IMG/VR virus record: IMGVR_UViG_3300025141_008753
Coordinates: 3,677-67,676 of that record
Reading direction: 5' to 3' (one strand)
From: a virus
Length of the DNA: 64,000 nucleotides
Positions 2,711 through 28,076 of this stretch are shown here, piece after piece. Positions within the stretch are counted from its first letter, which is position 1. Every line of letters starts with the position of its first letter. The position numbers were made by a program, and so were the translations under genes. The notes beneath the pieces are model-generated. The model searched no databases. It was not told the DNA's origin and saw nothing but the letters and a program-made list of their open reading frames with translations.

Positions 2711-3014
2711 TCAAGATAAGGAGCTTAATGAGATTCTAAAAAGACGTAAGTCGTCTAGTTTCTCGCTCCTTTATTACTCTTTATGGTGCAGTAGGTCCAA
2801 GACGGCGATTGCGCTGGCGGACGAATGGAGGGAGAGAGAAGGAGACGAGACGATGTACCTAGTAAATAGCTGGGACCTCCCGCAATCGTTTGCGGCGTTC
2901 TCCATCACTTCAGCCCCTACTCTCGTACACGTTAAAAAGGGCAAGATACGCGTGGATGTTGAATATCCAAAAGTATATTCTTACCTTACTGCGGGTCGTC
3001 CAAAAACTGCTTAA
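2688..3014 (+). CDS. Thioredoxin-fold protein lacking a full CxxC
   Basis: LLYYSLWCSRSK and FSITSAPTLVHVK resemble the WCxxC and cis-Pro regions; ATG 2688 preferred as start. Confidence 0.55.
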   Translation: MRTIKKISQDKELNEILKRRKSSSFSLLYYSLWCSRSKTAIALADEWREREGDETMYLVNSWDLPQSFAAFSITSAPTLVHVKKGKIRVDVEYPKVYSYLTAGRPKTA

Positions 3015-3351
3015 TTTTACGGTCTTTGTAGTCTTGAATTTTCTCTTGATACTTTTTATTCTTAGTATAAATGAGTTTCAGATTATTTACGATTACTGTA
3101 GTAAAATAATTAAAAGCCGAGCCTTTATCTGGAGTGAAGTTCTTTAATACTTTAAGCGCCAATACAAAGCACTCCTGTTTTGCGTCGTCGTGGTCCACCT
3201 TAAATTTGAAGGATAGGAGAATGTTGGAGATAAGTAAATCCAATTTTTCTACCAAATCATCGACATGACCCTCCTCATCTTCCAAATAGTTCTTAATAGT
3301 TGCCTCAAACTCCTTGTTGTTGAGGTAATGCTTACCTTTCTTTTTAGCCAT
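2986..3351 (-). CDS. T4 gp55-like late sigma factor
   Basis: HYLNNKEF...DDAKQECF...KNFTPDKGSAFNYFTTVIVN matches the gp55/sigma region 2 pattern. Confidence 0.7.
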   Translation of the reverse strand: MAKKKGKHYLNNKEFEATIKNYLEDEEGHVDDLVEKLDLLISNILLSFKFKVDHDDAKQECFVLALKVLKNFTPDKGSAFNYFTTVIVNNLKLIYTKNKKYQEKIQDYKDRKIKQFLDDPQ

Positions 3352-3363
3352 AACATGTAATAG

Positions 3364-4338
3364 ATGCAAGACTTAGAAAAATTAATACAAACTTTTGAAG
3401 AAACTAGTTCAGAATTCGATATAATACAAAACCCTGTAGGGGAAGAGGAAATTGTTTTCGTACATTCTTCTTACCATAAAAGTATGGGACAAGTATTCAA
3501 CTTTCCGGATAATGAATATGGGATTTTTACAAAACTTTTAAAACAGACAAAAATCCCCGAAAATTCGTATCAATTAGTTCCTGCGATTAAATTGGCTAAT
3601 ATTCCCGATGACGACATTGATACCAAGATGTTCCATAAGATGCGCCCGGTGCTTCACGATGAGATGGAGCAAATCAAACCTAAGCTAATTATCCCTTTGG
3701 GTAATGTGGCGATGAAGGCGTTGATTAAGAAATCCGGACTCAGTAATAAGAGAGGCAGGGAGTTTAAACTAGGAGACTTTCCTGTAGTACCGACATTTGG
3801 ACCAGACACTTTATTCTTAGAGCCTAAGGTACGGGACCTGTTTATACAGGATGTAAATAACGCTTATGATAAATTTATCCTAGAGACTAACAAGCTTGCA
3901 GACTCCACTTATGTTTTATGTAAGACAATGGACGAGGTTAATGAGAACCTAGACAAAGTAGAAGCTTGTGATGTAGTAGCAGTAGATTTGGAGACAACAG
4001 GATTAGACTTCAAAAAGGATAAGATTACAACTATTGGCTTTTCTATGGGGGAAGAGGAAGCTTTCGTCATCCCTGTTAATCATAGAGAGACGCCCTTTGA
4101 CGAGAAAGAGATAAAGCATATCTCTGAACGAGTAGCCAAAATTATGGCTAACGATAACATTGCTAAAGTTTTTCATTACTGTCAATTTGATTTAAAATTT
4201 TTGATGAACTTTGGCTCAACCACTTTTAACAACATTGAGGATACGAAAATTATGCATGCTTTGATTGATGAGAATTTGCCGCACGGCTTAATTGATTTAG
4301 TAAAGCAGTATTTCCCACATGAATTGGAGAAGTTCTAA
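3364..4338 (+). CDS. polA: DNA polymerase A, N-terminal part: UDG-like domain plus 3'-5' exonuclease motifs I-II
   Basis: IKPKLIIPLGNVA...PVVPTFGP (family-4 UDG-like, His replaced); VAVDLETTGLD (ExoI); FHYCQFD (ExoII); DTKIM. Confidence 0.8.
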   Translation: MQDLEKLIQTFEETSSEFDIIQNPVGEEEIVFVHSSYHKSMGQVFNFPDNEYGIFTKLLKQTKIPENSYQLVPAIKLANIPDDDIDTKMFHKMRPVLHDEMEQIKPKLIIPLGNVAMKALIKKSGLSNKRGREFKLGDFPVVPTFGPDTLFLEPKVRDLFIQDVNNAYDKFILETNKLADSTYVLCKTMDEVNENLDKVEACDVVAVDLETTGLDFKKDKITTIGFSMGEEEAFVIPVNHRETPFDEKEIKHISERVAKIMANDNIAKVFHYCQFDLKFLMNFGSTTFNNIEDTKIMHALIDENLPHGLIDLVKQYFPHELEKF

Positions 4339-4583
4339 TGACTCTAGAAGAGAAATACATATTACTTCGGCTCCTCGTGGAATGGGACCCATCTGTAGTC
4401 TCGGAAAACACTGGGAAGTTCAGGATGTCTAAATTGGATGCGCATCTAGACCGCTTAGACTTACCTACTGCAAAATCCATAGTGACAAGTCTCAAAGACC
4501 ACTTGGCTTCGTACGTTGACGATAATGATTTTTGCAACAATATCCAATGGTGTTTCCCAAGAATAAAGCATGTCTCCCAATAA
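4338..4583 (+). CDS. Small hypothetical protein between the polymerase halves
   Basis: 81 aa; TAATG stop/start overlap with the upstream ORF. Confidence 0.55.
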   Translation: MTLEEKYILLRLLVEWDPSVVSENTGKFRMSKLDAHLDRLDLPTAKSIVTSLKDHLASYVDDNDFCNNIQWCFPRIKHVSQ

Positions 4584-4621
4584 AGCGGAGAAATTTTAAC
4601 GCCACTTACTATTATTATATC

Positions 4622-5617
4622 ATGGATAAAATCAAAGCAGAATACATTTGGTTGGACGGCACAGAACACATGCCCCGCCTTAGAAGTAAAACCCGAATCA
4701 TCGAGGCTTCGGGCGAAGTCCCTGAATGGGGGTTTGATGGCGGGAGTACTTACCAAGCTGATAACGAGAACTCAGACCTAACTCTCAAGCCTGTAAGGGT
4801 TTACAAAGACCCGTTTCGCGAAGAAGACGACGTCCTCGTTCTGTGTGAAGTGTATGTCCCAGAAACAGGGCTTCCTCATGACAGTAATACGAGGGATGGT
4901 CTTTTAGATATGCCTGTAACAGATGCTCCACTATTCGGCTTTGAACAGGAGTACACTTTATTTAACGGTAAAATGCCTATCGCATGGATGTACAACGAGA
5001 TGCCAGAGCCACAGGGAGATTACTACTGCGGTATCGGTAATCGGATTGTGTACGCAAGAAATATGGCAGAAGACCATTTAGTTAAATGTCTGAAGGCTGG
5101 AGTGGATATCTACGGGATGAATGCTGAAGTTATGCCTTCCCAGTGGGAGTTTCAAACCACCGCCAACGACCCCCTCAAAGCTGCTGACGACCTGTGGATG
5201 GCTAGGTATATCCTAGAACGTGTAGGGGAAGCTTTCGGCTGTACTATTTCGTATGCGCCAAAGCCTCTTGCTGGAGAATGGAATGGTGCTGGATGCCATA
5301 CCAATTTCTCAACCAAACCCATGCGAGAGGGCTGGGACGCCATTCAGACAGCTATTAAGCGCCTTAAGAAGCGTCATGAGGTTCATATGCTATGTTACGG
5401 GGCTGACAACGAAGAACGCATGACAGGCGATTGTGAGACGTCTGACATCACTAAGTTCACGGTGGGAGAAAAAGACCGCTCTTGCAGCATTAGAATCCCC
5501 GCTGGTGTGTCCCGAGACAGGAAAGGATATATCGAGGACCGTAGACCAGCCGCTAATATTGACCCCTATCTCGTTTGCACTAGGATACTTAAGTCGGTAT
5601 GCTTAGACCAGGACTAA
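4622..5617 (+). CDS. glnII: Glutamine synthetase type II
   Basis: AEYIWLDG, LRSKTR, WGFDGGST, FGFEQEY, NAEVMPSQWEFQ, WNGAGCHTNFS, YIEDRRPAANIDPY; ATG 4622 lies 6 nt after TATTAT. Confidence 0.93.
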   Translation: MDKIKAEYIWLDGTEHMPRLRSKTRIIEASGEVPEWGFDGGSTYQADNENSDLTLKPVRVYKDPFREEDDVLVLCEVYVPETGLPHDSNTRDGLLDMPVTDAPLFGFEQEYTLFNGKMPIAWMYNEMPEPQGDYYCGIGNRIVYARNMAEDHLVKCLKAGVDIYGMNAEVMPSQWEFQTTANDPLKAADDLWMARYILERVGEAFGCTISYAPKPLAGEWNGAGCHTNFSTKPMREGWDAIQTAIKRLKKRHEVHMLCYGADNEERMTGDCETSDITKFTVGEKDRSCSIRIPAGVSRDRKGYIEDRRPAANIDPYLVCTRILKSVCLDQD

Positions 5618-5802
5618 GCGAACATGATAGAAATGAAGCACTTCGGCTTCTAACCGAGGTGTCTCGTACTATAACAAGCATAGGGGAAATTACCTTAGTA
5701 GACCATAAGGTAGACGGACGCTACGTAAATTTAATCTTTGACATTGGAAAAATAAAACAGGAGCTACATAATGCTAACAGTAACAGACGGCGGAACCCAT
5801 GA
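5599..5802 (+). CDS. Small hypothetical protein
   Basis: 67-aa ORF filling the gap between GS and the polymerase C-terminal ORF. Confidence 0.45.
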   Translation: MLRPGLSEHDRNEALRLLTEVSRTITSIGEITLVDHKVDGRYVNLIFDIGKIKQELHNANSNRRRNP

Positions 5803-7291
5803 TTGGGAAAACATGCCACTTGACGACATTGCCTTTGGTAATGCTATGGACTGCGATTTTACTCTTCGGTCCTTTAAGAAAATGCGTCGCGAGATGGAGA
5901 GTAAGCAAGTCGACCTAGTATATGATAACCTTCTGAAGTCTATTCTTGTAACTGCGTCCACTATAGAGAACAAAGGAATCTTAGTTGATACCGAGTATCT
6001 CGATGAAATAGATGAGATTCTAAAAGATGAAATTGAGGATATAAAAACGAGGCTTGCGACCCTCTCTCCTGTTTCTGACCTTAACCCCAACTCAAATTTA
6101 GAGTTGGCGGGCATTCTGTTCACGTCTGCGGGGTTTGATTTGCAACCTGTTTCCTTTTCGGAGAAGACTAAAACACCTCAAATATCTGAACAACACCTAC
6201 TCAAGGTTAAGGCTAACACGGACTCTGACGATGCTGTTGAGTTTATTGAACTCTTATTGAAGTATAAGTTCCGTGTTAAACAACATAAGACATACGTGAA
6301 CGGTATCAGGGATGCAATCACATACAACGAAGACGGACGGGTCTACTCCAGCTACAACTTCGGTACAGTAGTTACGGGTAGACTATCCTGCTCTACGTAT
6401 ACAGTAGGACCTAAAAAGAAAAAAGGCATCTCTTTCCATACTTTACCTAGACCTGACGAAAATGATAATATCAATCTAAGAAGGCTCATGATTCCGGACG
6501 GGGATAAGGTCTTCATCGCAGCCGACTTCTCACAGGCTGAGCTTCGTATGCTCGCACAATGTTGTCGTGACGAAAGCCTTATCGAGGCATTTAATAGCGG
6601 AATGGACTTACATAAGTTTACAGCCTCTATGGTGTTTGATAAGCCTATTGACGATATTACTAAGCAAGAAAGACAAATTGCCAAGAGCGTAAGCTTCCTT
6701 ATTGTGTACGGGGGAGGACCCCACAAACTATCTGAACAGATTGGAAAGCCTGTAGGTTACTGTAAAAGTATCTTTGCGGCATACCAGGAATCGTTCCCTA
6801 AGGTTTTTCAATGGATTAATGGAGTTCATAAGTTTGTCCGGGAGAATGAATACGCGGTAAGCCCTTTCGGACGCCGTAGACACCTCTCTAACGTGAAGAG
6901 CCCTAACCGCAAATACCAGTACAGAGCCCTGCGGCAAGGTATGAACTTCATCATTCAGAGCTCAGCTTCAGACTTGATGTTACACTCTATTAAACGATTA
7001 CAGAAGTATATCGAGGCTGCGGGAGTTAGCGCAGAGATTTTAGCGACTGTACACGACTCTGTGGAGTTGCAGTGCGATAAAGAGGATTTGGACAAAGTAC
7101 TAGAGTTGCTGAAGTTTTCTCTTACAAATACAGAAGATTTTAAAGATAATTATGGATTAGACTTTGTTGTTCCGTTTGAGGTAGATATCGAGGTCGGACA
7201 TTCCTTCGGAGACGGTAAGGAGGCTAAATTTACTCCTGAAGGACGACTAACGAATTTAACAGAACTTTATGAATACATCGAGAATAAGTAA
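5771..7291 (+). CDS. polA: DNA polymerase A, C-terminal part (ExoIII plus polymerase domain)
   Basis: GNAMDCD (ExoIII-like), TVVTGRLS, ADFSQAELR (motif A), RQIAKSVSFLIVYG (motif B), TVHDS (motif C). Confidence 0.92.
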   Translation: MLTVTDGGTHDWENMPLDDIAFGNAMDCDFTLRSFKKMRREMESKQVDLVYDNLLKSILVTASTIENKGILVDTEYLDEIDEILKDEIEDIKTRLATLSPVSDLNPNSNLELAGILFTSAGFDLQPVSFSEKTKTPQISEQHLLKVKANTDSDDAVEFIELLLKYKFRVKQHKTYVNGIRDAITYNEDGRVYSSYNFGTVVTGRLSCSTYTVGPKKKKGISFHTLPRPDENDNINLRRLMIPDGDKVFIAADFSQAELRMLAQCCRDESLIEAFNSGMDLHKFTASMVFDKPIDDITKQERQIAKSVSFLIVYGGGPHKLSEQIGKPVGYCKSIFAAYQESFPKVFQWINGVHKFVRENEYAVSPFGRRRHLSNVKSPNRKYQYRALRQGMNFIIQSSASDLMLHSIKRLQKYIEAAGVSAEILATVHDSVELQCDKEDLDKVLELLKFSLTNTEDFKDNYGLDFVVPFEVDIEVGHSFGDGKEAKFTPEGRLTNLTELYEYIENK

Positions 7292-8294
7292 GGTAGTAAT
7301 TCTAACAGACCTTCACCTAAGGTCGGATTACATGCCTGGATTTTTGGATACCCAAGTTGAAACTTTGCTCCATTACGCTAATAGGAAGCCGTGCTCACAC
7401 GTCGTTATAAACGGCGATGTTTTTGAGAGAAGGAATCCTACTGGGGAGGAGCTTTTAGCTTTTAGGAAAGTTCTGGACGGCATTAAGTGCAACAACATTA
7501 TTGTAAACAGGGGGAACCATGACACGCTACGCAAAGATGGCTCGTCGGAGACGGTCCTTAGTCTATTTTCAGACAAAGCGAAGATTATTACAGATACAGA
7601 GACAGTTAGAATTGGAACAATCGACTTCGACTTCATCCCCCACTACGAAGATGAAGACAGAATCATCCAAGACTTAAAGAAAACGAATAATCCAGTATTT
7701 GGACACTTCGGTTTTGATGGTTGCGTATCTAACGGTCACTACGCGTATGAAGCGCGAGTGAAGAAATGGCATTTCAAAAAGAAACCTTTTGGTTTCCTAG
7801 GACATATACACAAACCTCAAATTTATAATAATGTGGTTATTATGGGTACGCCTTATTCTAATACCTTCGGAGAAGCCAACGCTCAAAAGTTTATTCACGA
7901 GCTGGTGATTCGTGACCAAGAGATAGAACTTGTTAAAAAGCCCATCGACAGAGGTATTAAACACATAGTAGGAACGGTAGACCAGCTACCAGCGCTAGCT
8001 AAGAAGCATAGGTTCGACAGCTTCTACACGATTCTACGGGTTAAGTTGGATAAGCTGGACTCATACACAGAAGAGCAGTTAAGGGATAAGTTATTTGCTC
8101 AGTACCCTATAAAACATTTAGAGTTAGTATTCGAAGATGTCTTGCCTAAATTTGAATCAGGTTATGTTCCTGAGAACCGTATTTTTAGTTTAGACGAGAG
8201 TGTTATAAATCAATACATATCCGAAAGCGATACTGTGTTTTCTAGAGAAGATATAATGGGAGCTTTGGAGGAGATTAGAGATGAAATTAAATAA
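7269..8294 (+). CDS. Mre11/SbcD/gp47-like recombination nuclease
   Basis: TDLH, NGDVFE, GNHD, GHIH phosphoesterase motifs; adjacent to a Rad50-like gene. Confidence 0.88.
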   Translation: MNTSRISKVVILTDLHLRSDYMPGFLDTQVETLLHYANRKPCSHVVINGDVFERRNPTGEELLAFRKVLDGIKCNNIIVNRGNHDTLRKDGSSETVLSLFSDKAKIITDTETVRIGTIDFDFIPHYEDEDRIIQDLKKTNNPVFGHFGFDGCVSNGHYAYEARVKKWHFKKKPFGFLGHIHKPQIYNNVVIMGTPYSNTFGEANAQKFIHELVIRDQEIELVKKPIDRGIKHIVGTVDQLPALAKKHRFDSFYTILRVKLDKLDSYTEEQLRDKLFAQYPIKHLELVFEDVLPKFESGYVPENRIFSLDESVINQYISESDTVFSREDIMGALEEIRDEIK

Positions 8295-9891
8295 AATTGA
8301 GATTCATAATTTTCTTTCGATAAAGGAAGCTGCCATAGATTTTGATTCGTATGGAAATTTGGTCCGCATTGTAGGAAAGAACTTTGATACAAAGCCGAGA
8401 AGTTCTAACGGGGCTGGTAAGAGTTCTATTATTGAGGCGGTTATGTTTGCGTTGTTTGGGAAGACAATACGAAAGACAAATGATAAAAGTTTAAAGAATT
8501 ATCATACAAAAGGTAAGTGCCGCGTTGTTCTTACTGTTAACGGGGATACAGTCATAGAGAGAATTAAGAAAGCTCCTATGTTGTCCGTGACGGTAGCAGG
8601 AGAAAACTGTACACAAGATTCCATACAAGCTACTCAGAAATACCTAGAGAAGTTTCTTAACATTAACCATAATGTGTTCCTAGCCTCCATCGTATTTGGA
8701 CAACAGAACAACACGTCATTTTTAACGGCAACGCCCGACGAGAAACGTTCTATTATCCAGAGTTTCCTGTCAGTCAAAGACTTATTCCAGAACAGGTCCA
8801 CGATTAAATCATTAAAGACTAAGTATTTAAACGAAAAGAAGATTAATCTGACCTTACATAATGATGGATTAACTAAAATTGAAAGGTCGCAAAAGAAGAT
8901 TAAAAAGCTTAAAGGCATGCAAAAGCAGGCTAAACAGTTTTTAGCGTCTGATAAAGCTAAGTTTATTTTCGCTCACACGTTCAGTGAGATACAAGAGGCT
9001 GAAAGGTTGTTCCACGAGAAAGACGTAGAGTATGAACAAGAACAAGCTAGCCTTACCGCTAATAGAGCTCGTATCAATCAAACAAAAAAAGTTATTCTGC
9101 AAATTAAGGATACAGACTGTGAGCACTGTGGTAAATTGTCCCGCGCGAATTGGAATAATACACAAGACCTAGCAGCTAAAGTTGAGAAATGGGAAGAAGA
9201 AGATAGAGAGAAAGTAAAATATCTTCGTCAACTAGGAAAAGAAGTGGATGCGTTAGCTATACCTGTATCTGCAGAAGACTTTGAACTCATTGAAAAGCTT
9301 AAAGCTGTAGATACTGAAATTAAGATTTTAGGCAAGCAACTCAGAAACGAGAAGGGTCGTGTGAGGAAATACGGAGAGCTATCAGTGGCTGCTCAGAAGC
9401 GGTACGATTTGATGAGGTTTTGGGAGCACGCGTTCTCCGAAGCGGGACTTATTAAGTATATCATACGAAATGTCCTGGAGTATTTTAATGAGCGGTGCAA
9501 CTCGTACCTCAGCACTTTGACAAAAGGAAATTTTATGATAAAGTTCGATGATACTTTGAACGAGGTCATCTATAATAATGAAGTCGGAGCGCATTACGAT
9601 TCCTTGTCTGGAGGAGAGAAGAAGCGGGTATCCTTGGCTGTAATGCTGGGGCTTAATGACCTACTGCTTCTAACCGGAAAGGACAGGTCCAACGTAGTAT
9701 TCTTCGATGAGGTAGCGGAATCTTTGGATGCTGATGGAGTGAAAGGGCTAATCGAGCTGATTCACCAAGTCTCGGAGCATAAGAAACTGTTCTTAATAAC
9801 CCACAATGAATATCTCACGTCTTTAGTCGAGGAATATTCAGAAACATTAACGGTAACAAAACGTAATAACATTACCAAAATCACTAAATAA
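8281..9891 (+). CDS. Rad50/SbcC/gp46-like ATPase
   Basis: NGAGKSS Walker A, CEHC zinc hook, LSGGE signature, FFDEV Walker B, ITH. Confidence 0.9.
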   Translation: MKLNKIEIHNFLSIKEAAIDFDSYGNLVRIVGKNFDTKPRSSNGAGKSSIIEAVMFALFGKTIRKTNDKSLKNYHTKGKCRVVLTVNGDTVIERIKKAPMLSVTVAGENCTQDSIQATQKYLEKFLNINHNVFLASIVFGQQNNTSFLTATPDEKRSIIQSFLSVKDLFQNRSTIKSLKTKYLNEKKINLTLHNDGLTKIERSQKKIKKLKGMQKQAKQFLASDKAKFIFAHTFSEIQEAERLFHEKDVEYEQEQASLTANRARINQTKKVILQIKDTDCEHCGKLSRANWNNTQDLAAKVEKWEEEDREKVKYLRQLGKEVDALAIPVSAEDFELIEKLKAVDTEIKILGKQLRNEKGRVRKYGELSVAAQKRYDLMRFWEHAFSEAGLIKYIIRNVLEYFNERCNSYLSTLTKGNFMIKFDDTLNEVIYNNEVGAHYDSLSGGEKKRVSLAVMLGLNDLLLLTGKDRSNVVFFDEVAESLDADGVKGLIELIHQVSEHKKLFLITHNEYLTSLVEEYSETLTVTKRNNITKITK

Positions 9892-15166: not shown

Positions 15167-15937
15167 ATGGTAAATTTAAACGAACTACGTAAAAAATACG
15201 AACAAATTAATAATCCTGGAGGAGGTGGCAACACTGATTTCCTTAGCAAGTTTTTTATGATGGAAGAGGGCACATCTGTTGTCCGTGTTCTTCCTTGGAA
15301 AGACGATAGCCAAGAATTCTACACCGAAACCGCAATTCACCGATTGGATGATAAGAACTACCACTGCCCCCGTGTTAAGGGTGGTAAGTGCCCCGTGTGC
15401 GATACATACTACGATTTGTGGAAGCAGATTAATGTTATCGGTAAGGAAACACCTGAAGGTAAGGAGCTAGCTGAGTTAGCTCGTGGTATTAAGGCTCGCA
15501 AGCGTTTCTACTTGAATGTAGTTGACCGCCGCGACGAAAAGGTTAAGATTCTTTCTGTGGGGCAAAAGCTCTTCGGTAAGATTCTTGATTGTTTCTTTGA
15601 TGAAGACTTTGGAGATATCACTGACTTAAAAGAAGGTTGGGATTTTAAGATTGTAAAAGACACTCAAGGACAGTGGCCGAATTATGATAAGTCTGCTCCT
15701 AAACCAAAACAAAGTGAAGCAGGTACTGATGCTGAAACTGCGACTTGGATGGACGAACTTCATGATATTCACGGTCTTGTTAAAGTAGCAGACTATGAAG
15801 AGCTTAGGCAAATGATGATGTCTTTAACCGGACAGTCTGAGCCCAAAACGATTGCAGAAATCGAGGCTACGGCGTCAGAAGAAGATACTACCGAGGAAGA
15901 TTACCTCTCACACTTAAAGAATCTTAAGGTCGACTAG
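15167..15937 (+). CDS. gp32-like ssDNA-binding protein
   Basis: VRVLP, H...CP...CPVC zinc site, RFYLNV, DITDLKEGWDF, acidic C-terminus. Confidence 0.85.
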   Translation: MVNLNELRKKYEQINNPGGGGNTDFLSKFFMMEEGTSVVRVLPWKDDSQEFYTETAIHRLDDKNYHCPRVKGGKCPVCDTYYDLWKQINVIGKETPEGKELAELARGIKARKRFYLNVVDRRDEKVKILSVGQKLFGKILDCFFDEDFGDITDLKEGWDFKIVKDTQGQWPNYDKSAPKPKQSEAGTDAETATWMDELHDIHGLVKVADYEELRQMMMSLTGQSEPKTIAEIEATASEEDTTEEDYLSHLKNLKVD

Positions 15938-17139
15938 TGAAAGAGAAGCGGAAGCTTAGAATTCTGGCATGCCCCTCTAACGAAGGGGGGTGTGCCTACT
16001 ACCGTATTATAATGCCACTACAAAAGTTGGAAGAGAAGTGCGGGGACGAAGTAGAGATTAGATGGAACTCTAATCCGTTAGGGGCTGACCCCAAGACAGG
16101 CAAAACACTGCCGGATTGGGAGCCTACTGACTTTGAATGGGCTGACATTGTTTTTACCCAGAACATTCATAACTTTGGAGGTCATTACACTGTGAATATT
16201 TTAAAATGTGCTTTTGACCACGGATGTTTCACCCACTTTGATACAGACGACTTACTTACAGATTTATATGAGGGGCACCGCCTGTACAAAGTATACAAAG
16301 AACAAAAGTTAGATGAGATAACCAAGTTTATTTATAGTAATGTAGACTTGGTTACCGTTACTCAGCGAAAGTTTGCTGAGCGCATCATGCCTTATGTACG
16401 TAATGCATTGGTTGTGATTAAAAACGCAATCGACTTTAATCTACCAAGCTGGAATGTCCCTCGGATGTCCACTAAGCAGTGTAGAATCGGATGGGCTGGG
16501 GGTATCCACCACGACGTGGACGTTAAAGAGTTTGCCAGCGTACCTTTAGGAGTAAATTCTAAATGCGGGGTTGAAAATATTCATTGGGGATTCTACGGTA
16601 GACCGCCTATGCCTATGGAAGATGGGAAACCAAAACCTGACTGGCAACAAGATGTATGGGATGGTTATGAACGTACAATGACTATAGGCATGAAAGGCAA
16701 GAGAAAGAACTACGACATTTTCTTCGCTTTACCATGCCACGAGTACGGAAAAATGTTTTCTAACATGGACTTGTGTATAGCCCCCCTAGAACATAACGCG
16801 TTTAATGACTCTAAATCAGAGATTAAAGCTATTGAAGCAGGTCACTACGGACTCCCTTTGATTGCTACAAACACTGGCTGTTATGACGAGTTAATTGTGA
16901 ACGGCGAAACCGGGTTTTTAATCGACCCCGAAAACAAAAGGAAAGATTGGGTCAATGCCATTTCTAAAGTAGTTAAGGATAAAAAACTACGTGACAGAAT
17001 GGGGCGCAATTTAAAGAAGATTGTAGATGAAAATTACGATATTAATAATATTGTACAAGGACGTTTAGAGTTATACCAGCAATTAATGGATGCAAAAACT
17101 AAAGCTATGGAGATGCATAATGCCAAAGCATTATCTTAG
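15937..17139 (+). CDS. GT-B (GT4-like) glycosyltransferase
   Basis: GCAYYRI, FDTDD, IGWAGG, APLEHNAFNDSKSEIKAIE. Confidence 0.85.
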   Translation: MKEKRKLRILACPSNEGGCAYYRIIMPLQKLEEKCGDEVEIRWNSNPLGADPKTGKTLPDWEPTDFEWADIVFTQNIHNFGGHYTVNILKCAFDHGCFTHFDTDDLLTDLYEGHRLYKVYKEQKLDEITKFIYSNVDLVTVTQRKFAERIMPYVRNALVVIKNAIDFNLPSWNVPRMSTKQCRIGWAGGIHHDVDVKEFASVPLGVNSKCGVENIHWGFYGRPPMPMEDGKPKPDWQQDVWDGYERTMTIGMKGKRKNYDIFFALPCHEYGKMFSNMDLCIAPLEHNAFNDSKSEIKAIEAGHYGLPLIATNTGCYDELIVNGETGFLIDPENKRKDWVNAISKVVKDKKLRDRMGRNLKKIVDENYDINNIVQGRLELYQQLMDAKTKAMEMHNAKALS

Positions 17140-17938
17140 TATAGTTGCGTGTCTAAAGAATGAAGCGCCTAATATTGTAGAATGGTTAGAGTTTCATAAG
17201 TTGGTCGGCGCTGAACATTTCTACTTGTATGATAACGAAAGTACTGACAACACCAAAGAAGTTCTGCAGCCCTACGTAGACGCTGGGGAAGTATCTTTAT
17301 TTTATACTGACATGGACAACTGTCAGTTTGCGTGTTACTATAACGCTTTAACAGCTTATCGAGACCAGTCCGTATGGATGGCTTTTATAGACTTGGATGA
17401 GTTTTTGTTTTCTCCCGAAGGCGAGTTAATCGAGAACCTTAAAGAGTTTGAAACGAAATGTCCCGGCATAGCCGTTAACGAAGTATTCTTTGGGTCGAAT
17501 AACCACCTTACTAGACCAGACGGATTAGTAATAGAGAATTATACTAAAAGAGAGAAGGAACTTAATAAACACATAAAGAGTATCTGCCAGCCGAACTACA
17601 CGCTTTGTCCTGCAAACAACCCGCACTCATTTGTTTACATGCAGGGACAGGCTATTACAGAAAACGGAGAGGTATGTGGAGGAGCTTTTACCGAAACTCA
17701 TAGTTCTGATAAGTTTAGGATACACCATTACTTTTCTAAATCTAAAGAAGAGGCTGAAGTAAAACTTAATCGCGGTCGGGCGGATGTTCCTAAAAGGGAC
17801 CCAATGTTCCGATACGGCACAGGGCTAGATGATTTTAGTTTTGATGATTATTGCGCTGGAGCAAACGATGTTGAAGATATGGCAATGTTAAAGTACGTAC
17901 CAGAATTAAAGAGGATAATTGATGAAAGAGAAAATTAA
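17120..17938 (+). CDS. GT-A (GT92/GT2-like) glycosyltransferase
   Basis: KNEAPNIVEWLEFH, YDNESTD, WMAFIDLDEF, IHHYFSKS. Confidence 0.85.
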   Translation: MPKHYLSIVACLKNEAPNIVEWLEFHKLVGAEHFYLYDNESTDNTKEVLQPYVDAGEVSLFYTDMDNCQFACYYNALTAYRDQSVWMAFIDLDEFLFSPEGELIENLKEFETKCPGIAVNEVFFGSNNHLTRPDGLVIENYTKREKELNKHIKSICQPNYTLCPANNPHSFVYMQGQAITENGEVCGGAFTETHSSDKFRIHHYFSKSKEEAEVKLNRGRADVPKRDPMFRYGTGLDDFSFDDYCAGANDVEDMAMLKYVPELKRIIDEREN

Positions 17939-18716
17939 AATTTTGACGGGGTGGTCTAACCCTGGAGGCTCTACCGTAGCTCTTATTAATTTATGTAACT
18001 TATTAAATGAAAGAGGTTATGACTGTACTATGTACGGTCCACACGGATGGCACATTAAACAGTGCAAGTCGGGATGGCTTAATGAATGCCCCTTAAACGA
18101 AGTTAACGAGCGATTGATTGTGCACTTTTTACGCTTGCCTGCGCGCCCTACGGAATCGGAGGCTGTTGTTTTGGCTTGTCACGAGAAGGACGTGTTTCCT
18201 ATAAAAGATGTGCCGTGTTACTGGGACGAGACAGTCTTCGTATCGAAGACGCAGAAGGAATGGCAGGGCACAGAAGGCGTGGTAATCCCTAATGTTATAG
18301 CGCCTCTCGCTCCCCCTAAACTAGTGGTCTTAGGTAAGCCCGCAGGTATTATAGGAAGTATAGACGAGAATAAGAATGTTCATGTATCAATTGAACGCGC
18401 CGTTAAGGACGGACACAAAGACATCAAACTATACGGCATAGTAACGGACCAGCCTTACTATGATAAGTATGTAAAGTCTTACGTAGAGGAAGGCACCGCT
18501 ACGGTGATGGGGCACGAGGACAACAAACAAGAAATGTATGACTCAATCTCTTGTGTATATCACTCATCTAAAAGTGAAACTTTTAATCTAGTTAAAGCAG
18601 AGTGCAAAAAAACAAACACTCCGTACCACGGTCTAGACTCAGCTGAATCAGGCGCTGAGGACTGGACAGACTCCCAAATTTTAAACGCATGGAAAACCGC
18701 ACTAAACTTGTCGTAA
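17922..18716 (+). CDS. Putative GT-B glycosyltransferase
   Basis: PGGSTVA, VFVS, IPNVI, SKSETF. Confidence 0.65.
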   Translation: MKEKIKILTGWSNPGGSTVALINLCNLLNERGYDCTMYGPHGWHIKQCKSGWLNECPLNEVNERLIVHFLRLPARPTESEAVVLACHEKDVFPIKDVPCYWDETVFVSKTQKEWQGTEGVVIPNVIAPLAPPKLVVLGKPAGIIGSIDENKNVHVSIERAVKDGHKDIKLYGIVTDQPYYDKYVKSYVEEGTATVMGHEDNKQEMYDSISCVYHSSKSETFNLVKAECKKTNTPYHGLDSAESGAEDWTDSQILNAWKTALNLS

Positions 18717-19756
18717 CAGTAACCGGGATTCGTCCGGACTTTATCCGTATGTCCAAGGTGTTTAAAGCTTTGGACGACGACCCGGACATTGAACATGTCC
18801 TTGTTCATACAGGTCAGCACTATGATGAGCTATTGTCAGGGGTATTTTTTGACGAGCTAGACATTAGAGAGCCAGATTACAATTTAGCTATTGGTGACGG
18901 AGGATGTACGCATTACGAACAGCTAGGCAGAGTATCAACACGCCTTATTGAGTTGTTTAAAAAAGAAAGTCTTCACCCTCACGTCGTTATGTTTCTAGGA
19001 GATTCTAATTCGGTCGGGGCGGCTTTCCCTTTAAAGAAAGAAGGTTACAAGGTAGCTCATATAGAAGCGGGTATGAGGTCAGGAGATAAGAGAATGTTAG
19101 AGGAGATTAACAGGATTGTGTGCGACCACTGCTCAGACGTTCATTTCGTATATCACGAGGATTACAAACAGAACCTTCTAAGAGAGGGGTTACCGGAAGA
19201 AAACATCTTTGTAGTAGGTAATACTATCGTTGAACCTCTCTCAGAAATATGGGAACCTTCTACCCCCTCTAATGATTACATTTTAATGGATATACATAGA
19301 CCAGAGAATTTCAAACACTCTCATAGAATGTCACGTATTATGCTATTTGCTAATAAATGTGCCGAAAGGTTTGGAGTTCCTGTAAAAATGGTAGCATGGG
19401 GCAGGACGTTATCTGCCTTGGAACCGTTGAACATGGGTAATGTAGAGTTATCCCCATTGATGTCTTATAAAGATTATATAAAAGCTCAGTGGAATTCTAA
19501 ATTTATAATCTCTGATTCAGGCACGGCACAAGAAGAACCTTCCTTAATGCACGTCCCTGTTATAGTACCTCGGGATTTTACCGAGAGACCTCAATCTGTT
19601 GAGCATGGATGTTCCTACATGCTGAAGGTAGATGATATGGACTCATGGGAAGAGCCTATCCGCTGGGTAGAAGAGTGGGAAGGTTGTTATAGCCGTTGGC
19701 TCGGAGACGGGAACACATCACAGGAGATAGTAAAATGCTTAAAGTCTCGATTGTAA
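18689..19756 (+). CDS. wecB: UDP-N-acetylglucosamine 2-epimerase (non-hydrolysing type)
   Basis: GIRPDFI, HTGQHYD, HIEAGMRS, HRPEN, SDSGTAQEE. Confidence 0.9.
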   Translation: MENRTKLVVTVTGIRPDFIRMSKVFKALDDDPDIEHVLVHTGQHYDELLSGVFFDELDIREPDYNLAIGDGGCTHYEQLGRVSTRLIELFKKESLHPHVVMFLGDSNSVGAAFPLKKEGYKVAHIEAGMRSGDKRMLEEINRIVCDHCSDVHFVYHEDYKQNLLREGLPEENIFVVGNTIVEPLSEIWEPSTPSNDYILMDIHRPENFKHSHRMSRIMLFANKCAERFGVPVKMVAWGRTLSALEPLNMGNVELSPLMSYKDYIKAQWNSKFIISDSGTAQEEPSLMHVPVIVPRDFTERPQSVEHGCSYMLKVDDMDSWEEPIRWVEEWEGCYSRWLGDGNTSQEIVKCLKSRL

Positions 19757-20508
19757 TGTCTTACTATAACCGCAGGGCACAGTTCCTGCGGACGTTATCT
19801 ACTATACAAAAAACTAAGTATACGAATTACGAAGTTATTGTTGTAGATGATGGTAGTGTAGAAGAGCATAGGTTAGAAGATGTAGACGGTATAAAGTTAA
19901 TACGGACAGAGCCGGAAACGAAAAATTACATTAATCCTTGCATACCTTTTAACAGAGGGTTTAAAGAAGCCACAGGAGATATTGTTATCTTACAAAACCC
20001 CGAGTGTTTGCATTTAGGAGATGTTATATCTCATGCGAAGGATAACGTTACTGATGAAAATTATATTTCTTACGAGTGTTACTCGTTCGACGAATTTATA
20101 ACTAAAAGGTTGCCGGACGATATAACCCACGAAGGAATGGATAGGATAAAGAGCATCCTTCCCCAGTTACCACAGCAACCTCCCGAAGCAGGGCAGTGCG
20201 GGTGGTATAATCACAATAATATAAAACCTACGGGGTATCACTTTACATCTGCTATAACAAAAAAGAATCTGGACACTTTAAAAGGTTTCGATGAGCAGTT
20301 TGCTCATGGCATAGGATTTGATGATGATGAGTTTTTGGCTAGAGTGAAGCATCTCGGTCTCGAAGTTGTCATACCTTCAGCCCCGCCTATGTCTGTTCAC
20401 CAATGGCACTATTCGTCAGGTGGATTTGAGGCGGAAGCAAGTAAAGACTGGAGCTTATTTCATAGGAACAGGGCTCTGTACGAACAATTAAAAAATAGTT
20501 TAAAATGA
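19735..20508 (+). CDS. GT2-family glycosyltransferase
   Basis: VSIVMSYYNR, VVDDGS, GFDEQF...GFDDDEF. Confidence 0.85.
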   Translation: MLKVSIVMSYYNRRAQFLRTLSTIQKTKYTNYEVIVVDDGSVEEHRLEDVDGIKLIRTEPETKNYINPCIPFNRGFKEATGDIVILQNPECLHLGDVISHAKDNVTDENYISYECYSFDEFITKRLPDDITHEGMDRIKSILPQLPQQPPEAGQCGWYNHNNIKPTGYHFTSAITKKNLDTLKGFDEQFAHGIGFDDDEFLARVKHLGLEVVIPSAPPMSVHQWHYSSGGFEAEASKDWSLFHRNRALYEQLKNSLK

Positions 20509-21305
20509 AAATAGTCGGATTTTGTCAATTACACAACGAGCTCTCTAACGGTAACCTAGAGAATTGGTTTAAATGCATGGAAGTATGTGATTACATATAC
20601 ATCTATGACCAGAACTCTACTGACGGCAGTAAAGAGTATTATAAGAAGTTTGATAATGTAGTAGTTATTGAATCACCTATTAACGATTACGAGAATGAAC
20701 GTATTTGTAAAGGTACACTTCTGAAAAAACTTCTTAAGGAGCATCCCGACACTGACTGGATTTACTGGATAGACGGTGATACTATGATGGACGGTAGGTT
20801 AATAGGCAACAACGGCTATTACCTACGAGACCTTTGCAGACATTGTTCGGAGCAGAATATTGACGGTATTTATTTTGGTCACTTAAACTTGTGGAGAAGC
20901 GATGTCTGGGTTCGCACTGATAATAACTATGATATGTTTGATAGAGACGGTAGGCGAGCACTATGGAGAAACAATGGTAAATTGTATTTTCATGAACAAG
21001 CAGGTTTGCATGGCAGAAACCCTGATATGACAGATGCGCAAGAGCCTATGGGCATGGAGAGAAGTATACGTGTTCCATTTACCCTTGTTCACCGTGGGTT
21101 TGCTGACGACAAGCAGCTTGTAGGTAAATATGAAAACTACAAAAGCAGAGGGCAGGAAGGAGAATCGTTAGACCGGATAATAGATGAACGAGGTTTAACT
21201 GTACAACCTATTCCGCCCGGTATTCTACCTCATTGGATTGAGCCTAAAGATGTACAGGACCCAAGAGAAAAGGAGAGGTTGGTAGATGCGTACGACAAAA
21301 ATTAA
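20505..21305 (+). CDS. GT2-like glycosyltransferase
   Basis: YDQNSTDGS, WIYWIDGD, VHRGF. Confidence 0.75.
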   Translation: MKIVGFCQLHNELSNGNLENWFKCMEVCDYIYIYDQNSTDGSKEYYKKFDNVVVIESPINDYENERICKGTLLKKLLKEHPDTDWIYWIDGDTMMDGRLIGNNGYYLRDLCRHCSEQNIDGIYFGHLNLWRSDVWVRTDNNYDMFDRDGRRALWRNNGKLYFHEQAGLHGRNPDMTDAQEPMGMERSIRVPFTLVHRGFADDKQLVGKYENYKSRGQEGESLDRIIDERGLTVQPIPPGILPHWIEPKDVQDPREKERLVDAYDKN

Positions 21306-22149
21306 TATAGTTACAGTTAATAGCGGATGGATTCTGCAGAAGATAGCTGAACGTATTCATGACGAACTAAAAAATTTATGTGAGTCGTCTATCTCTCATG
21401 AGCCTGATGAAACTGCGGACGCCAACTTTTATGTTGATGTACAAAACTGTTTCTTTGGACCAACCAAAACGTTTGATATCGGGTATTTCACGCACGTACA
21501 CGAAAATAATCCACAGTGGATTAACCCAACTTGGTTTCAGTTAGATTACATCATGCATATGTGTACCAGGTACTACGATATGTTTAGTAATCACTATCCA
21601 AAAGAGAAGATGCAAGTCGAGTATCAAGGGCAGACGGATTCAGCATTTACTTTGAAGAAACCTGTCTTAGGGGTATTTCAGAGAGGCGGGTTTGAAGGAA
21701 AGGGTGAAGGGGTAATGCATAATCTGATTTCGCGCCCGTGTATGAAAAATTATAAACTACTGTTTGTGGGAGGTGGTTGGGAAAATGTAATGCGGGCTTG
21801 TGAGCAGGCTGGAGTAGAAGCTGAACACGTAACCGATGAGTCGTATGAAAACTATCCTGCCCACTATGACCGTATTGATTATCTTCTCATTCCTTCTCTA
21901 TGGGAAGGAGGACCTATGTCTGTTATAGAAGCCTGCGCTAAAGGGATTCCTATCATAGGCTCGAATGTAGGAGTAATTGGCAAGGACCTGGAGATTGATT
22001 ATATGTACGAACCTGGAGATATTAACGCCCTTGAAGGTATTTTAGACTCTATAATGGAGGAGCCATTAAAGCGCAGAAAAAAAGTGGCGGGTTTATCTTG
22101 GAAAAAGTACGCAGAAACACTATTACAAGTTGTGGAGAATAACATATGA
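21286..22149 (+). CDS. GT4-like glycosyltransferase
   Basis: PSLWEGGPMSVIEACAKGIPIIGSNVG. Confidence 0.85.
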   Translation: MRTTKINIVTVNSGWILQKIAERIHDELKNLCESSISHEPDETADANFYVDVQNCFFGPTKTFDIGYFTHVHENNPQWINPTWFQLDYIMHMCTRYYDMFSNHYPKEKMQVEYQGQTDSAFTLKKPVLGVFQRGGFEGKGEGVMHNLISRPCMKNYKLLFVGGGWENVMRACEQAGVEAEHVTDESYENYPAHYDRIDYLLIPSLWEGGPMSVIEACAKGIPIIGSNVGVIGKDLEIDYMYEPGDINALEGILDSIMEEPLKRRKKVAGLSWKKYAETLLQVVENNI

Positions 22150-22601
22150 AGTTAAATTTAGGATGCGGTAATGATTACAGAGAAGGATGGGTAAATGTGG
22201 ACAGGGGAGACTGTAAGTGTGATGTGGAGCACGACTTGTTCGAGTTTCCTTATCCTTTTGAAGACAGTTCTGTTGATGCTATCTTTCTTTCTCATATGAT
22301 GGAGCATTTCCCAAAGGACATGTTTGTGGATGTTGTTCGTGAGCTTTATAGGATATGTAGAAATGACGCAGAGATTTTAATTATATCCCCTCACGCAGGC
22401 TCCGATAATTTTTGGACCGACCCTACGCATAGCATGCCGTTGACATCTAGAACATTCGATTATTTTGACCGAACTAAACCATTGTTTGAGAACGGGGAGA
22501 TTTATGGTTGGGATGATGTTAATTTTTTGGTACAGGCTGAGGTGGTTCCCAATGAGCCAAATGGACCCGACGTTAAACATTTATTAAAAGTTATAAAATG
22601 A
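22146..22601 (+). CDS. Class I SAM-dependent methyltransferase
   Basis: KLNLGCG, PFEDSSVD, SHMMEH, DPTH. Confidence 0.85.
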   Translation: MKLNLGCGNDYREGWVNVDRGDCKCDVEHDLFEFPYPFEDSSVDAIFLSHMMEHFPKDMFVDVVRELYRICRNDAEILIISPHAGSDNFWTDPTHSMPLTSRTFDYFDRTKPLFENGEIYGWDDVNFLVQAEVVPNEPNGPDVKHLLKVIK

Positions 22602-23404
22602 CACCGTTTACTTATTACACAATTATAGGAAAAGACCCTTCATTGCTGAAAGGTCATTTGGAAAACGTTACTAAGTACGCAGGGTTTGATAAACTTGAAT
22701 GCGAAAAAAGACTTTTGGTTATTGTTTACCGTAATTCGTTAATCACTAAAGAAACCACGGATAAAATACTGGAAGTTTGTGATGAGTACGGCGCTCACCC
22801 AGTTATGTACGATGAGCCTGTAACTGAATTCCTGCCTAATTTATATGCTTGCTGGAACTTAGGTTATGAGTATGCTCTGGACGGGTTTGTGTTTAGGGGA
22901 GGGTCTGACCAAGTGTTCTCCAAGGATTCGTTTGTCTCCTTGCACAGGGTCGCGGAGGAGACGAAAAACCGTAACATAGTACTGCAAGCAAATACCATTG
23001 AAAATGGAGACAGAAATTTGGGCAGCAGGCACATCCTAAAATCTTTTGGGGATACTTTTGAGGGGTTCAAGTTAGAAGAGTTTGAAGAAACTTGCGAAGA
23101 GCTTAACGGAAGCCCTTTCTTGCCTGACGGTGACTTGGTTTCTATTTCGGAAGCACTTGAAGTGTGGGGAAAACCCACATCATTTAATTCTTCTTTAGGG
23201 CATATTAATCGGTGTGACGGATGTTCCTGGTTAATGTCTAAGAAGGATTGGGAAGAGTTCGGTCCTTTACCTATCACAGAAAACGGTCACACAGGAGATG
23301 TTGTTATTCACGATAGGTTACAGAAGGCAGGGTACCAGTCTTATATCGCCAAGGACTGTATTACGTATCATTTTGTTAGAGGCGAGTCTTTAGAAGTACA
23401 ATGA
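22598..23404 (+). CDS. Putative GT-A glycosyltransferase
   Basis: [24 protein letters not shown]; located within the sugar cluster. Confidence 0.55.
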
Positions 23405-24366
23405 AAACTGCATTTATTACTGGAATTACGGGGCAAGATGGCTCCTACCTCGCCGAACTTCTTTTGGAGAAGGGGTATACTGTTGTTGGTTTAGTTAGGA
23501 GGGTTTCTACTGAAAATACTCAGCGTATATCTCATATTGAGTCGGAGCGGTTGACCTTGGTTGAGGGAGATGTCACAGACCTGTCATGTTTGGTGCACGC
23601 GATGCAGGAGCATAAACCGGATGAGGTTTATAATTTAGCCGCACAGAGTTTTGTTATGGGCTCATTCGCAGAACCTATTCACACAGCTGAAGTAAATGCG
23701 ATAGGTACTCTTAATGTTTTAGAGGCGGTGCGTATTATGCACCCAACTGCAAAGGTGTACCAAGCTTCTACTAGCGAAATGTTTGGGAAGGTTCGTGAAA
23801 CTCCTCAAAACGAAGACACCCCTTTCCATCCGCGCTCCCCTTACGGAGTAGCGAAAACATACGCCCATTTTATGGTACAGAATTACAGAGAAAGTTATAA
23901 AATATTTGCATGTTGTGGTATCTTGTTTAACCATGAGTCTCCCCGTAGAGGAGAAGAGTTTGTAACACGTAAAATTACTAAAGCGGTTGCTAACATTAAA
24001 AAAGGTAAACAGGATAAGTTATTTTTGGGTAACTTAGACGCAAAGCGTGATTGGGGATTTGCTCCTGATTATGTTGAAGCTATGTGGATGATGTTACAAC
24101 AGGAGAAGCCTGATGATTATGTTATTTCCACAGGAGAGACGCACACTGTTCGAGAGTTCTGTGATGTTGCGTTTTCACGTCAAGGTCTTAACTACAGAGA
24201 TTATGTTGAGGTAGACCCAAAATTTTATAGACCTGCCGAGGTTGAGATTTTGCTAGGAGATAACACCAAAGCTACGACTGTCCTGCAGTGGACACCACGT
24301 CATAGTTTTAAAGACTTAGTTGAAATTATGGTTGATGCTGATGTGACGGGGGGTGAATCTAAATGA
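23401..24366 (+). CDS. gmd: GDP-mannose 4,6-dehydratase
   Basis: [48 protein letters not shown]. Confidence 0.96.
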
Positions 24367-25160
24367 AAATAGGAATTATGGGCGTGGGCGCCGTTGGTAG
24401 CGCTATTAAATATGGGTTTGAAAAGCTGGGGCATGATGTCTTTGGATATGATACAGCAGATTTTGAGACCGAGTTTCGGGACGTACTATACACGGACATT
24501 TGTTATATTTGTGTACCTACCCCCAAAAATGAAGATGGCTCCTGCAACGTAGGCATTGTGGACAAATGCGTAAGGGACCTCATCGCCGCCGACTACACCG
24601 GTATTATAGCTATTAAATCTACGGTTTCTCCAGGAACCACGCAAAGGCTGATTGATTCGTTCGGAGATAGAATATGTTTTGTGCCTGAGTTCCTTCGTGA
24701 GAGATGCGCTATCACAGATTTCATGGAATCGCATGATGTGTGTATTATAGGCACGGAGGATAAGGAAGTGTTTAAGGCTGTTAGAAAGTCTCATGGTCGT
24801 TACCCTAGGAAGGTTGTACAGGTATCCCCAACGGAAGCTGAGATGTGCAAGTATTTTAATAACATATACAATGCTACGTTGATAACATTCGCTAACAGCA
24901 TGTTTGAAGTGTGCGAGGTTCTGGGCGCTGACTACACCGCAGTTAAAGAAGCGATGACCGAACGCATACATATTTTTGATAGGTACTTAGACTGTAACCC
25001 CAAGACACGAGGGTTTGGTGGGGTGTGCTTGCCCAAAGATACAGCCGCGTTAGATAGCTTGTGCAAAGACCTTTCTATCGATGTAGAGTTGTTTGGGTGC
25101 CTACTCAAAGAAAACAACAAATACGAGACTACAGTATTCGAGGGTATGAGGAAAATATAA
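24363..25160 (+). CDS. UDP-glucose/GDP-mannose dehydrogenase family, lacking the C-terminal domain
   Basis: [34 protein letters not shown]. Confidence 0.88.
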
Positions 25161-25161
25161 C

Positions 25162-27888: not shown

Positions 27889-28076
27889 TGGCAGTAGAGA
27901 CTCGGGTACGAAGCCTTCTCAAGACCGTAGTGTGGAGAGTAGTTGCAACGGCTAATAGTTACCTGGTTTTAGTCTCTGATTTCTGCCAAACAAATATAGA
28001 GAGCGCTGTTCTAATGAACATTACAGGGTTCTTTATTTTTTACGCGCATGAGCGTGTATGGGCACACATAAAATAA
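27888..28076 (+). CDS. DUF2061-like small membrane protein
   Basis: ETRVRSLLKTVVWR...YAHERVW. Confidence 0.7.
   Translation: MAVETRVRSLLKTVVWRVVATANSYLVLVSDFCQTNIESAVLMNITGFFIFYAHERVWAHIK

Follow-up and report, generated by a model that had tools for sequence, protein, structure and literature searches.

The DNA studied here is a stretch of 64,000 nucleotides (nt), in the following called the window, which covers positions 3,677 to 67,676 of the IMG/VR virus record IMGVR_UViG_3300025141_008753. The record is linear, comprises 67,676 nt and has a completeness of 62% as estimated by CheckV; the window is DNA of an uncultured marine phage. It encodes a family A DNA polymerase whose gene is divided into two open reading frames (ORFs), here called exoN and polC. 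Exonuclease and polymerase are thus not present in one polypeptide: the two ORFs are 1,432 nt apart, and the DNA between them holds a small ORF (orf81), the gene for a glutamine synthetase (GS) and a second small ORF (orf67). On the plus strand the gene order is exoN, orf81, GS, orf67, polC, SbcD/Mre11-like and SbcC/Rad50-like (Table 1). An earlier reading of this DNA from its letters alone, in the following the sequence-only reading, had described a UDG-like domain with ExoI and ExoII in the first half, the ExoIII segment with the polymerase motifs in the second half, and an insert with a GlnII-type GS and two small ORFs, and this anatomy was confirmed position by position.

Table 1. Features of the polymerase locus, with positions in the window (aa, amino acids; slot, the junction between exoN and polC; L036, one of the related loci described below)
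Feature	Position	Strand	Length	Remarks
Sigma-70 region-2-like protein	2986..3369	-		Pfam Sigma70_r2, E 1e-4, below cut-off
exoN, N-terminal polymerase subunit	3364..4338	+	324 aa	UDG-like domain, ExoI and ExoII; ends ...HELEKF
orf81, small cargo ORF	4338..4583	+	81 aa	57%-identical ORF is the sole slot insert in L036
Glutamine synthetase, GlnII type	4622..5617	+	331 aa (ATG 4622)	Pfam Gln-synt_N and Gln-synt_C
orf67, small helical ORF	5599..5802	+	67 aa	Overlaps GS end by 19 nt and polC start by 32 nt
polC, C-terminal polymerase subunit	5771..7291	+	506 aa	ExoIII helix, thumb, palm, fingers; motifs A, B, C
SbcD/Mre11-like gene	7269-8294	+		Pfam, PHROGs; conserved right neighbour by synteny
SbcC/Rad50-like gene	8281-9891	+		Pfam, PHROGs; conserved right neighbour by synteny

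The polymerase gene is divided between ExoII and ExoIII

The N-terminal half carries two domains. Residues 54-154 of exoN match Pfam UDG with 28.3 bits (cut-off 24.3), and residues 185-322 match DNA_pol_A_exo1, covering only positions 3-133 of the 173 profile positions; the last approximately 40 profile positions of the exonuclease fold are missing from exoN. ExoI (D-x-E) is present with D208 and E210 and ExoII with D276, and these three residues are invariant in 24 sequences. The dN/dS of exoN is 0.02-0.04 for two close pairs, with synonymous sites near saturation. The UDG-like domain reads IVFVHSS at the position of motif A and reaches only 24 bits with the NCBIfam model UDG_fam4, which has a cut-off of 125, and judging from these residues the fold is probably not a glycosylase.

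The C-terminal half begins with MLTVTDGGTHDWENMPLDDIAFGNAMD and contains a family A polymerase domain, matching positions 2-380 of the 381 positions of Pfam DNA_pol_A (E 2.1e-78). In the alignment with the Klenow fragment (E 1.6e-40), residues 17-31 of polC fall on the ExoIII segment, with D27 in the place of the ExoIII Asp, and DFSQAELR, RQIAKSVSFLIVYG and VHDS pair with the Klenow segments that we take to be polymerase motifs A, B and C. D27 and the motif residues D252, K305, H428 and D429 are invariant in 14 sequences, and the dN/dS of polC is 0.04-0.05, again with synonymous sites near saturation. The polC ATG (5771-5773) is preceded at a distance of 7 nt by AGGAG (5759-5763).

The ExoIII helix of polC (G23, N24, D27) differs from the usual one. 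At positions 5837-5851 of the window (polC residues 23-27) it reads G-N-A-M-D instead of Y-x3-D, and the position of the Tyr is Gly in the window as well as in 10/10 representatives of the clade in which the gene is divided (the split clade), compared with Tyr in 64 of the 75 fused representatives. The Asn following this Gly is conserved across the split clade; the residue preceding it varies (F, L, Y, V, I, E). Another peculiarity of the split clade lies at polC residues ~218-227 (window 6422-6451), where LQNIP of Klenow is replaced by G-(V/I)-S-F-H-T-L-P-R, preceded by a variable basic insertion.

Since the profile coordinates of the two ORFs adjoin, exoN and polC are consecutive parts of a single enzyme: in the PHROG profile phrog_17 (DNA polymerase) exoN covers positions 538-785 and polC 794-1242, and in the NCBIfam PolI model 286-433 and 448-887, respectively. 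The sequence-only reading had suggested an alignment to intact polymerases as a check, and both the Klenow fragment and the fused relative P0037 place the break between ExoII and ExoIII. Because of this position the proofreading site must form from two polypeptides, and all four acidic proofreading residues are invariant, D208, E210 and D276 in exoN and D27 in polC. A complete partner elsewhere for either half, which would have spoken against a two-part enzyme, was searched for in the record, and no second PolA or exonuclease match and no alternative partner was found.

A complex prediction, likewise suggested earlier, was run with polC and exoN residues 172-324. The ipSAE was 0.93 in three runs and 0.00 for the best of three controls, for a model that was built on alignments of our own making and whose pass may reflect likeness to solved single-chain PolA structures; the mark applied is reached by 58 of 80 solved complexes and by 2 of 110 mismatched pairs. 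The runs share at least 93% of the contacts, the partner pLDDT is at least 91 and the predicted error is low, with polC 12-67 packing on exoN 204-324. As the model and the conserved residues suggest, exoN and polC probably assemble physically and retain proofreading. The two-subunit polymerase with a site formed in trans, as the sequence-only reading had proposed, thus agrees with sequence, conservation and complex model, the assembly itself being the part that we infer.

The break is conserved in all classifiable relatives

Two scans of IMG/VR yielded 90 related loci (designated L) besides one that is near-identical to the window; 7 of them are truncated and 83 are classifiable. In 83/83 classifiable loci the gene is divided at the same position into separate ORFs for exoN and polC, with exoN ending on ...ELExx and polC starting with MLT(V/I), and the order and strand of the two genes are kept in every related locus. 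Adjacent and interrupted pairs, both of which the sequence-only reading had proposed to look for in relatives, were found, and no fused form was present among the 83. The 72 non-redundant junctions comprise 39 adjacent ones, 30 of them with a one-base stop/start overlap, and 33 in which the halves are separated by more than 30 nt, at most by 3.7 kb. With genes intervening at so many junctions, the pieces must work apart. The gap of 50 nt in L084 depends on a mechanically chosen TTG start and may be an artefact. In the most divergent relative, L091 (5831-8704), exoN and polC are in the same frame and are parted by one TAA followed by an ATG.

Searches beyond IMG/VR gave a comparable picture. 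Among 1.84 billion representative proteins the 36 best matches of polC are all short forms, and the first fused protein has rank 37 with 33% identity. When longer proteins were searched with exoN, no close fused form was found; the best were 29-36% identical and the best one with UDG, exonuclease and polymerase 29%. In a phage genome collection the nearest matches of exoN are the fused polymerases of SPO1-like Bacillus phages (27-32% identity) and those of polC the fused polymerases of Gordonia and Mycobacterium phages. All matches of polC, exoN and the DnaB-like helicase of the window in this collection are at most 33% identical, and the sigma-like protein has one match only (28%). No cultured member of the lineage was found in the collection, from which records very near the window may be left out.

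The junction between exoN and polC, which we call the slot, holds very different genes. GS is found in the slot in 15 loci plus two truncated ones, ThyX in L018, L023, L024 and L025, a PDDEXK_11 nuclease in L019 and L022, an HNH_3 protein in L081, DUF3310 in L032, an orf81-like ORF in L036 and a family of 91 aa in 4 loci. The largest slot (L025:3270-6996, 3.7 kb) contains GS, ThyX and a 659-aa protein without a match in Pfam or NCBIfam.

In many relatives polC has a second break, located at window residue ~143-157 near the border of thumb and palm, which results in three-piece polymerases (L032:3661-5246, L036:7001-8586, L054:7001-8558 and 44 further loci). The three pieces have ~340, 160 and 360-375 aa and mostly overlap by 4 or 8 nt, and both ends at the second break carry short extra tails that are absent from the continuous polC of the window. 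Since L032 and L036 are located inside an otherwise two-piece clade, the second break arose twice or was reversed. A weak kinase-like ORF is present at the second break of L039. In two-piece loci inserts are found at exoN|polC in 21/25 cases and at polC|Mre11 in 0/22; in three-piece loci the counts are 12/47 and 27/37. These counts show that the slot is the preferred cargo site specifically in the subclade of the window.

Two loci provide leads to hosts. L094:4178-10081, on a 130.6-kb contig titled Prochlorococcus single-cell AG-409-P03, has the order sigma, exoN, three-piece polymerase, Mre11 and Rad50, and its polC is 44% identical to that of the window. Prochlorococcus is therewith a candidate host, but only for the three-piece clade. 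A weaker lead is L095, whose 10-kb contig was binned to a metagenome-assembled genome of Planctomycetales.

Junctions of the insert

TAATG is present at both ends of the insert, as the sequence-only reading had observed. At 4336-4340 the exoN stop overlaps the start of orf81 by one base, with GGAG (4326-4329) located 8 nt upstream of this start. At 5769-5773 the TAA is not in the frame of orf67, whose end is at 5802, and there is no stop/start overlap, so only the first copy is a real one. The repeat was considered as a footprint of an insertion and rejected: the second copy is not an overlap, it is not conserved (L014, L015 and L017, which have the same layout of GS and orf67, contain no TA ahead of the polC start), and one-base overlaps are common, accounting for 9/74 same-strand ORF junctions in the window. 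Most probably the repeat is due to chance, as had been suspected earlier as well.

No sign of rejoining was seen at the break, in agreement with the earlier statement that intein ends and an intron core are absent. A scan of 3000-7600 with Rfam on both strands with E values up to 1 gave 0 matches, so no group I or group II intron core was found. By manual alignment count, the flanks of the break comprise 39 residues (16 of exoN and 23 of polC), the same number as the corresponding stretch of the fused P0037, leaving no room for intein halves. Orf81 and orf67 have no match to a nuclease family in Pfam, PHROGs or NCBIfam, and thus no homing endonuclease was detected among them.

An assembly chimera, which had been named as a possible refutation, was checked with contigs of four further marine metagenome runs placed on 3300-7400, and contigs bridge both junctions in 4/4. 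One contig spans 3300-7400 as a whole; in the remaining three runs 4336-4340 and 5769-5773 are crossed by different contigs. Breaks in the contigs of three runs are located within GS, at window positions 4830-5086, and in the fourth run differences, mostly third-position-like, are densely clustered at 4831-5067, which points to mosaicism of the GS gene at the level of strains.

Genes in the insert

The GS aligns end to end with the solved GSII 4bax (E 2.9e-101), and the conserved catalytic segments EQEY, NAEVMP-QWEFQ, GAG-HTNFS, RIP and EDRRP match; beta-grasp and catalytic domains are present at full length. Its dN/dS is 0.06, with synonymous sites near saturation, and from its sequence the enzyme is apparently intact. 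The nearest relatives are unnamed marine metagenome proteins, and bacterial GlnII proteins are ~50-53% identical. Most likely the GS is an auxiliary metabolic gene whose product provides glutamine for making nucleotides during replication, a role that we infer from its setting in a replication module and from the other cargo found in the slot (ThyX and the weak kinase-like ORF).

The small ORFs are less telling. Orf81 has no match in Pfam, PHROGs or NCBIfam and no other usable match. Orf67 could be assigned to no nameable family; its Atlas model is of modest confidence (pLDDT 0.68) and its structural neighbours are short helical proteins. In 10 loci, some with GS and some without, a homologue of orf67 immediately precedes polC; the dN/dS of orf67 is 0.18-0.41. 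The insert contains no terminator-like site on the plus strand, and promoter-like matches follow the consensus only weakly.

History of the break and of the GS

The polymerase tree has 70 rows and was obtained with a quick search; it is unrooted and came with long-branch warnings. In this tree the window belongs to a clade of 8 rows that carry GS (SH-aLRT 96), nested in a 23-row clade (SH-aLRT 98), in which GS alternates with adjacent, ThyX, nuclease (PDDEXK) and small-ORF states, and L030 (adjacent) is the sister of L031 (GS). The other 46 rows, the three-piece clade, have no GS. The GS sequences from the slot form one clade together with unnamed marine proteins, apart from bacterial GlnII. 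Within it the GS of the window groups with those of L025 and L020 and not with the GS of its nearest polymerase relatives, and forcing the polymerase grouping on the GS tree is rejected (log-likelihood difference 152.8, p-AU 1e-80). A single GS clade with a history incongruent to that of the polymerase indicates that GS entered these phages once and then moved among slot-bearing phages. The divergence of L003 and L015 is uneven, with a dN of 0.054 for polC, 0.129 for exoN and 0.215 for GS, which is compatible with a boundary of recombination located at the slot or close to it.

The break is much more widely shared than the GS, so that on parsimony the split came first, and the GS probably did not cause it. 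The sequence-only reading had described the polymerase as split by a GS cassette, and this part did not hold: the break is present in 83/83 relatives, most of them without GS, and 39/72 junctions contain no insert at all.

A two-protein polymerase and its alternatives

The observed gene anatomy, its conservation and the incongruent history of the GS are brought together by an explanation that we regard as probable, namely an old fission between ExoII and ExoIII, a non-covalent polymerase of two proteins and a junction that turned into a cargo slot. The gene for the family A replicative polymerase of this lineage would have been split long ago between ExoII and ExoIII. ExoN and polC would be made separately and then associate non-covalently, the N-terminal ~65 residues of polC completing the exonuclease fold of exoN, with three acidic ligands contributed by exoN and the fourth by polC. 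In the usual and probably older arrangement the two genes would be translationally coupled through a one-base stop/start overlap. In the subclade of the window the exoN|polC junction would have become a cargo slot, and recombination between related phages would bring genes into it, remove them and swap them.

Several points weigh against this explanation. A pass in the complex prediction is expected for two halves of a known fold, and it shows likeness, not binding. The Y-x3-D of ExoIII in DEDDy exonucleases (PF01612) is not found in polC, the Asp being present and the Tyr lost, and after this loss proofreading may be weakened or may work differently. What we take to be motif A of family-4 UDG is absent from the UDG-like domain of exoN. 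The GS scores 409.6 bits with the NCBIfam GlnII model (model 3-330 of 333), which is below the equivalog cut-off of 500 bits. The order of split and GS rests on parsimony, the root of the polymerase tree being not known, and the trees are quick ones with long-branch warnings.

Loss of the ExoIII Tyr throughout the split clade, the degenerate UDG-like motif and the 1.4 kb of cargo, which in the window removes the direct coupling between expression of the two halves, could also mean that polC alone is a polymerase without proofreading and that exoN is kept for something else, for instance as a DNA-binding or nuclease accessory. We consider this unlikely, since D27 and the ExoIII helix are invariant in polC though useless there alone, the fold of exoN is short of its final ~40 profile positions, gene order and strand are constant in every locus, and polC 12-67 fits into exoN in the complex model, where the predicted error is low. 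It might furthermore be argued that an intact polymerase gene was interrupted when the GS cassette inserted into it and that the GS-free relatives lost the GS later: the GS is located exactly in the break in the window and 15 related loci, the slot GS form one clade as after a single acquisition, and in an unrooted tree gain and loss of GS are formally indistinguishable. Such a course of events would however require approximately eleven independent losses, and it is at odds with the break in 83/83 classifiable loci, with a three-piece clade of 46 rows entirely without GS, with the alternation of GS and other slot states in the 23-row clade, in which L030 is sister to L031, and with the incongruent histories of GS and polymerase, which together make it very unlikely.

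Two further alternatives concern the reality of the gap. The halves might be reunited, whether in the transcript or in the protein, through an intron, a split intein, ribosomal bypass or a frameshift; group I introns are known in SPO1-type polymerase genes, as cited in PMC10580990, and the record of phage S-TIP37 mentions a possible frameshift for its own split gene. With 0 Rfam matches at E values up to 1, an insert made of three ORFs that are conserved in relatives and include a GS under purifying selection, and no extra residues at the break (39 versus 39 by manual alignment count), rejoining is extremely unlikely. In addition, we know of no precedent for a ribosomal bypass of 1.4 kb. The window is a metagenomic contig and contigs of several runs break within GS near 4830-5086, as might be the case for an assembly chimera at the junctions; the probability of a chimera is nevertheless practically negligible, because contigs of 4/4 other runs cross both junctions, one of them spanning the whole stretch, and because the same neighbour pairs exist in relatives (exoN-orf81 in L036, GS-orf67-polC in L014, L015 and L017).

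Surroundings of the locus

The sigma-like gene adjoins exoN in nearly all related loci (49-79% identity in tblastn) and is its conserved left neighbour; its true start is probably located a few codons inside the listed ORF. The two genes (2986-3369 and 3364-4338) are arranged head to head and their listed starts overlap by 6 nt. Almost without intergenic space between them, the promoter of either gene must be located in the coding region of the other. Beyond the SbcC/Rad50-like gene the plus strand contains a GroES-like gene, ribonucleotide reductase, dUTPase, a DnaB-like helicase and SSB. Glycosyltransferase, methyltransferase and UDP-glucose dehydrogenase-like genes and at least 6 nucleotide-sugar epimerase-like genes form a long series at window positions 15937-28948 and 35375-37034, unusually many for a phage replication region.

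Implications of a divided proofreading site

The two-protein polymerase would be a natural enzyme with a catalytic metal site shared by two separately encoded proteins, present across a large and diverse group of ocean phages, some of which extend the division to three pieces. It would offer a direct system to study how a split proofreading site assembles and whether fidelity changes. In annotation, and in surveys of marine viruses that rely on PolA, such genes would be taken for truncated ones or the exonuclease half would be overlooked. The junction between the pieces of an essential gene furthermore is a favoured landing place for metabolic genes such as GS and ThyX, and the cargo in the slot would link phage replication modules to the supply of nitrogen and nucleotides.

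Possibly, the fission is used and not merely tolerated, with proofreading tuned through the supply of exoN and the slot serving as a selected cargo bay, although we think this rather unlikely. If true, the site of the split and the loss of the ExoIII Tyr would let the phage set or vary its level of proofreading through the supply of exoN. GS, ThyX and the kinase-like ORF at the second break would then be expressed with the replisome and perhaps be recruited to it. The dNTP-synthesising complex of T4 is an analogy for nucleotide-supply enzymes at the replisome.

Comparison with known split and fused systems

Split phage polymerases are already known, and the described ones break elsewhere. In the open literature, with subscription journals and supplements outside the search, we found no PolA split between ExoII and ExoIII and no GS between polymerase halves. 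A study of PolA in virioplankton (PMC6302109) does not mention split, uracil or glutamine, and in PMC8115048 GS is mentioned only as a neighbour of glnB.

The polymerase of clade B T7-like cyanophages is referred to as split PolA in PMC12695635. In phage S-TIP37 (STIP37_17A/17B) the exonuclease and polymerase parts of a family A polymerase are located in separate adjacent ORFs, as in the window. Unlike in the window, the exonuclease ORF of S-TIP37 has all three Exo motifs including the Y-x3-D of ExoIII, and its break therefore is at the domain boundary and not inside the active site. Furthermore, S-TIP37 has neither a UDG-like domain nor cargo, its pieces overlap by 40 nt, and its record leaves a frameshift possible.

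The order of UDG-like domain, 3'-5' exonuclease and PolA is shared with SPO1-like Bacillus phages and with the metagenomic proteins P0037 and P0274. P0037 (802 aa) aligns across the break of the window, and P0274 combines PF03167, PF01612 and PF00476 in one chain. These fused polymerases however are single chains with the canonical ExoIII Tyr (DYACTD in P0037), and they are only ~30% identical to the halves of the window.

The OM43 phages MEP401 and MEP402 are similar to the window in having a marine PolA in two ORFs with a small ORF of unknown function between them, and according to PMC10580990 the same type of split is found in related metagenomic genomes. Their break, as described there, is however inside the polymerase domain, ORF13 comprising the whole exonuclease and the N-terminal part of the polymerase (PMC10580990); it resembles the second break of our related loci, not the break of the window. 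The authors proposed a possible intron (PMC10580990).

T4-related phages also contain essential replication enzymes encoded in two polypeptides, and these are described as reassembling: gp43A and 43B of Aeromonas phages 25 and 44RR co-purify and polymerise (PMC2988022), and the split NrdA of Aeh1 (NrdA-a/NrdA-b) is active (PMC3045599). The inserts in these split genes include genes for homing endonucleases (PMC2988022, PMC3045599). In contrast to the window, these cases concern a family B polymerase and a ribonucleotide reductase in few phages, with endonuclease genes or an untranslated spacer in between. The split of the window defines a large clade; the majority of its members are free of an insert, and metabolic genes make up most of the cargo.

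The GS resembles bacterial GlnII in length, in the end-to-end alignment with 4bax and in the catalytic segments, but it is only ~50-53% identical to it and belongs to a separate clade of phage and marine metagenome sequences. Compared with S-TIP37, MEP401/402 and the T4-related phages, what sets the window apart is a break within the exonuclease active site of a polymerase with a UDG-like domain, a split that extends through a whole clade, and metabolic cargo in the break.

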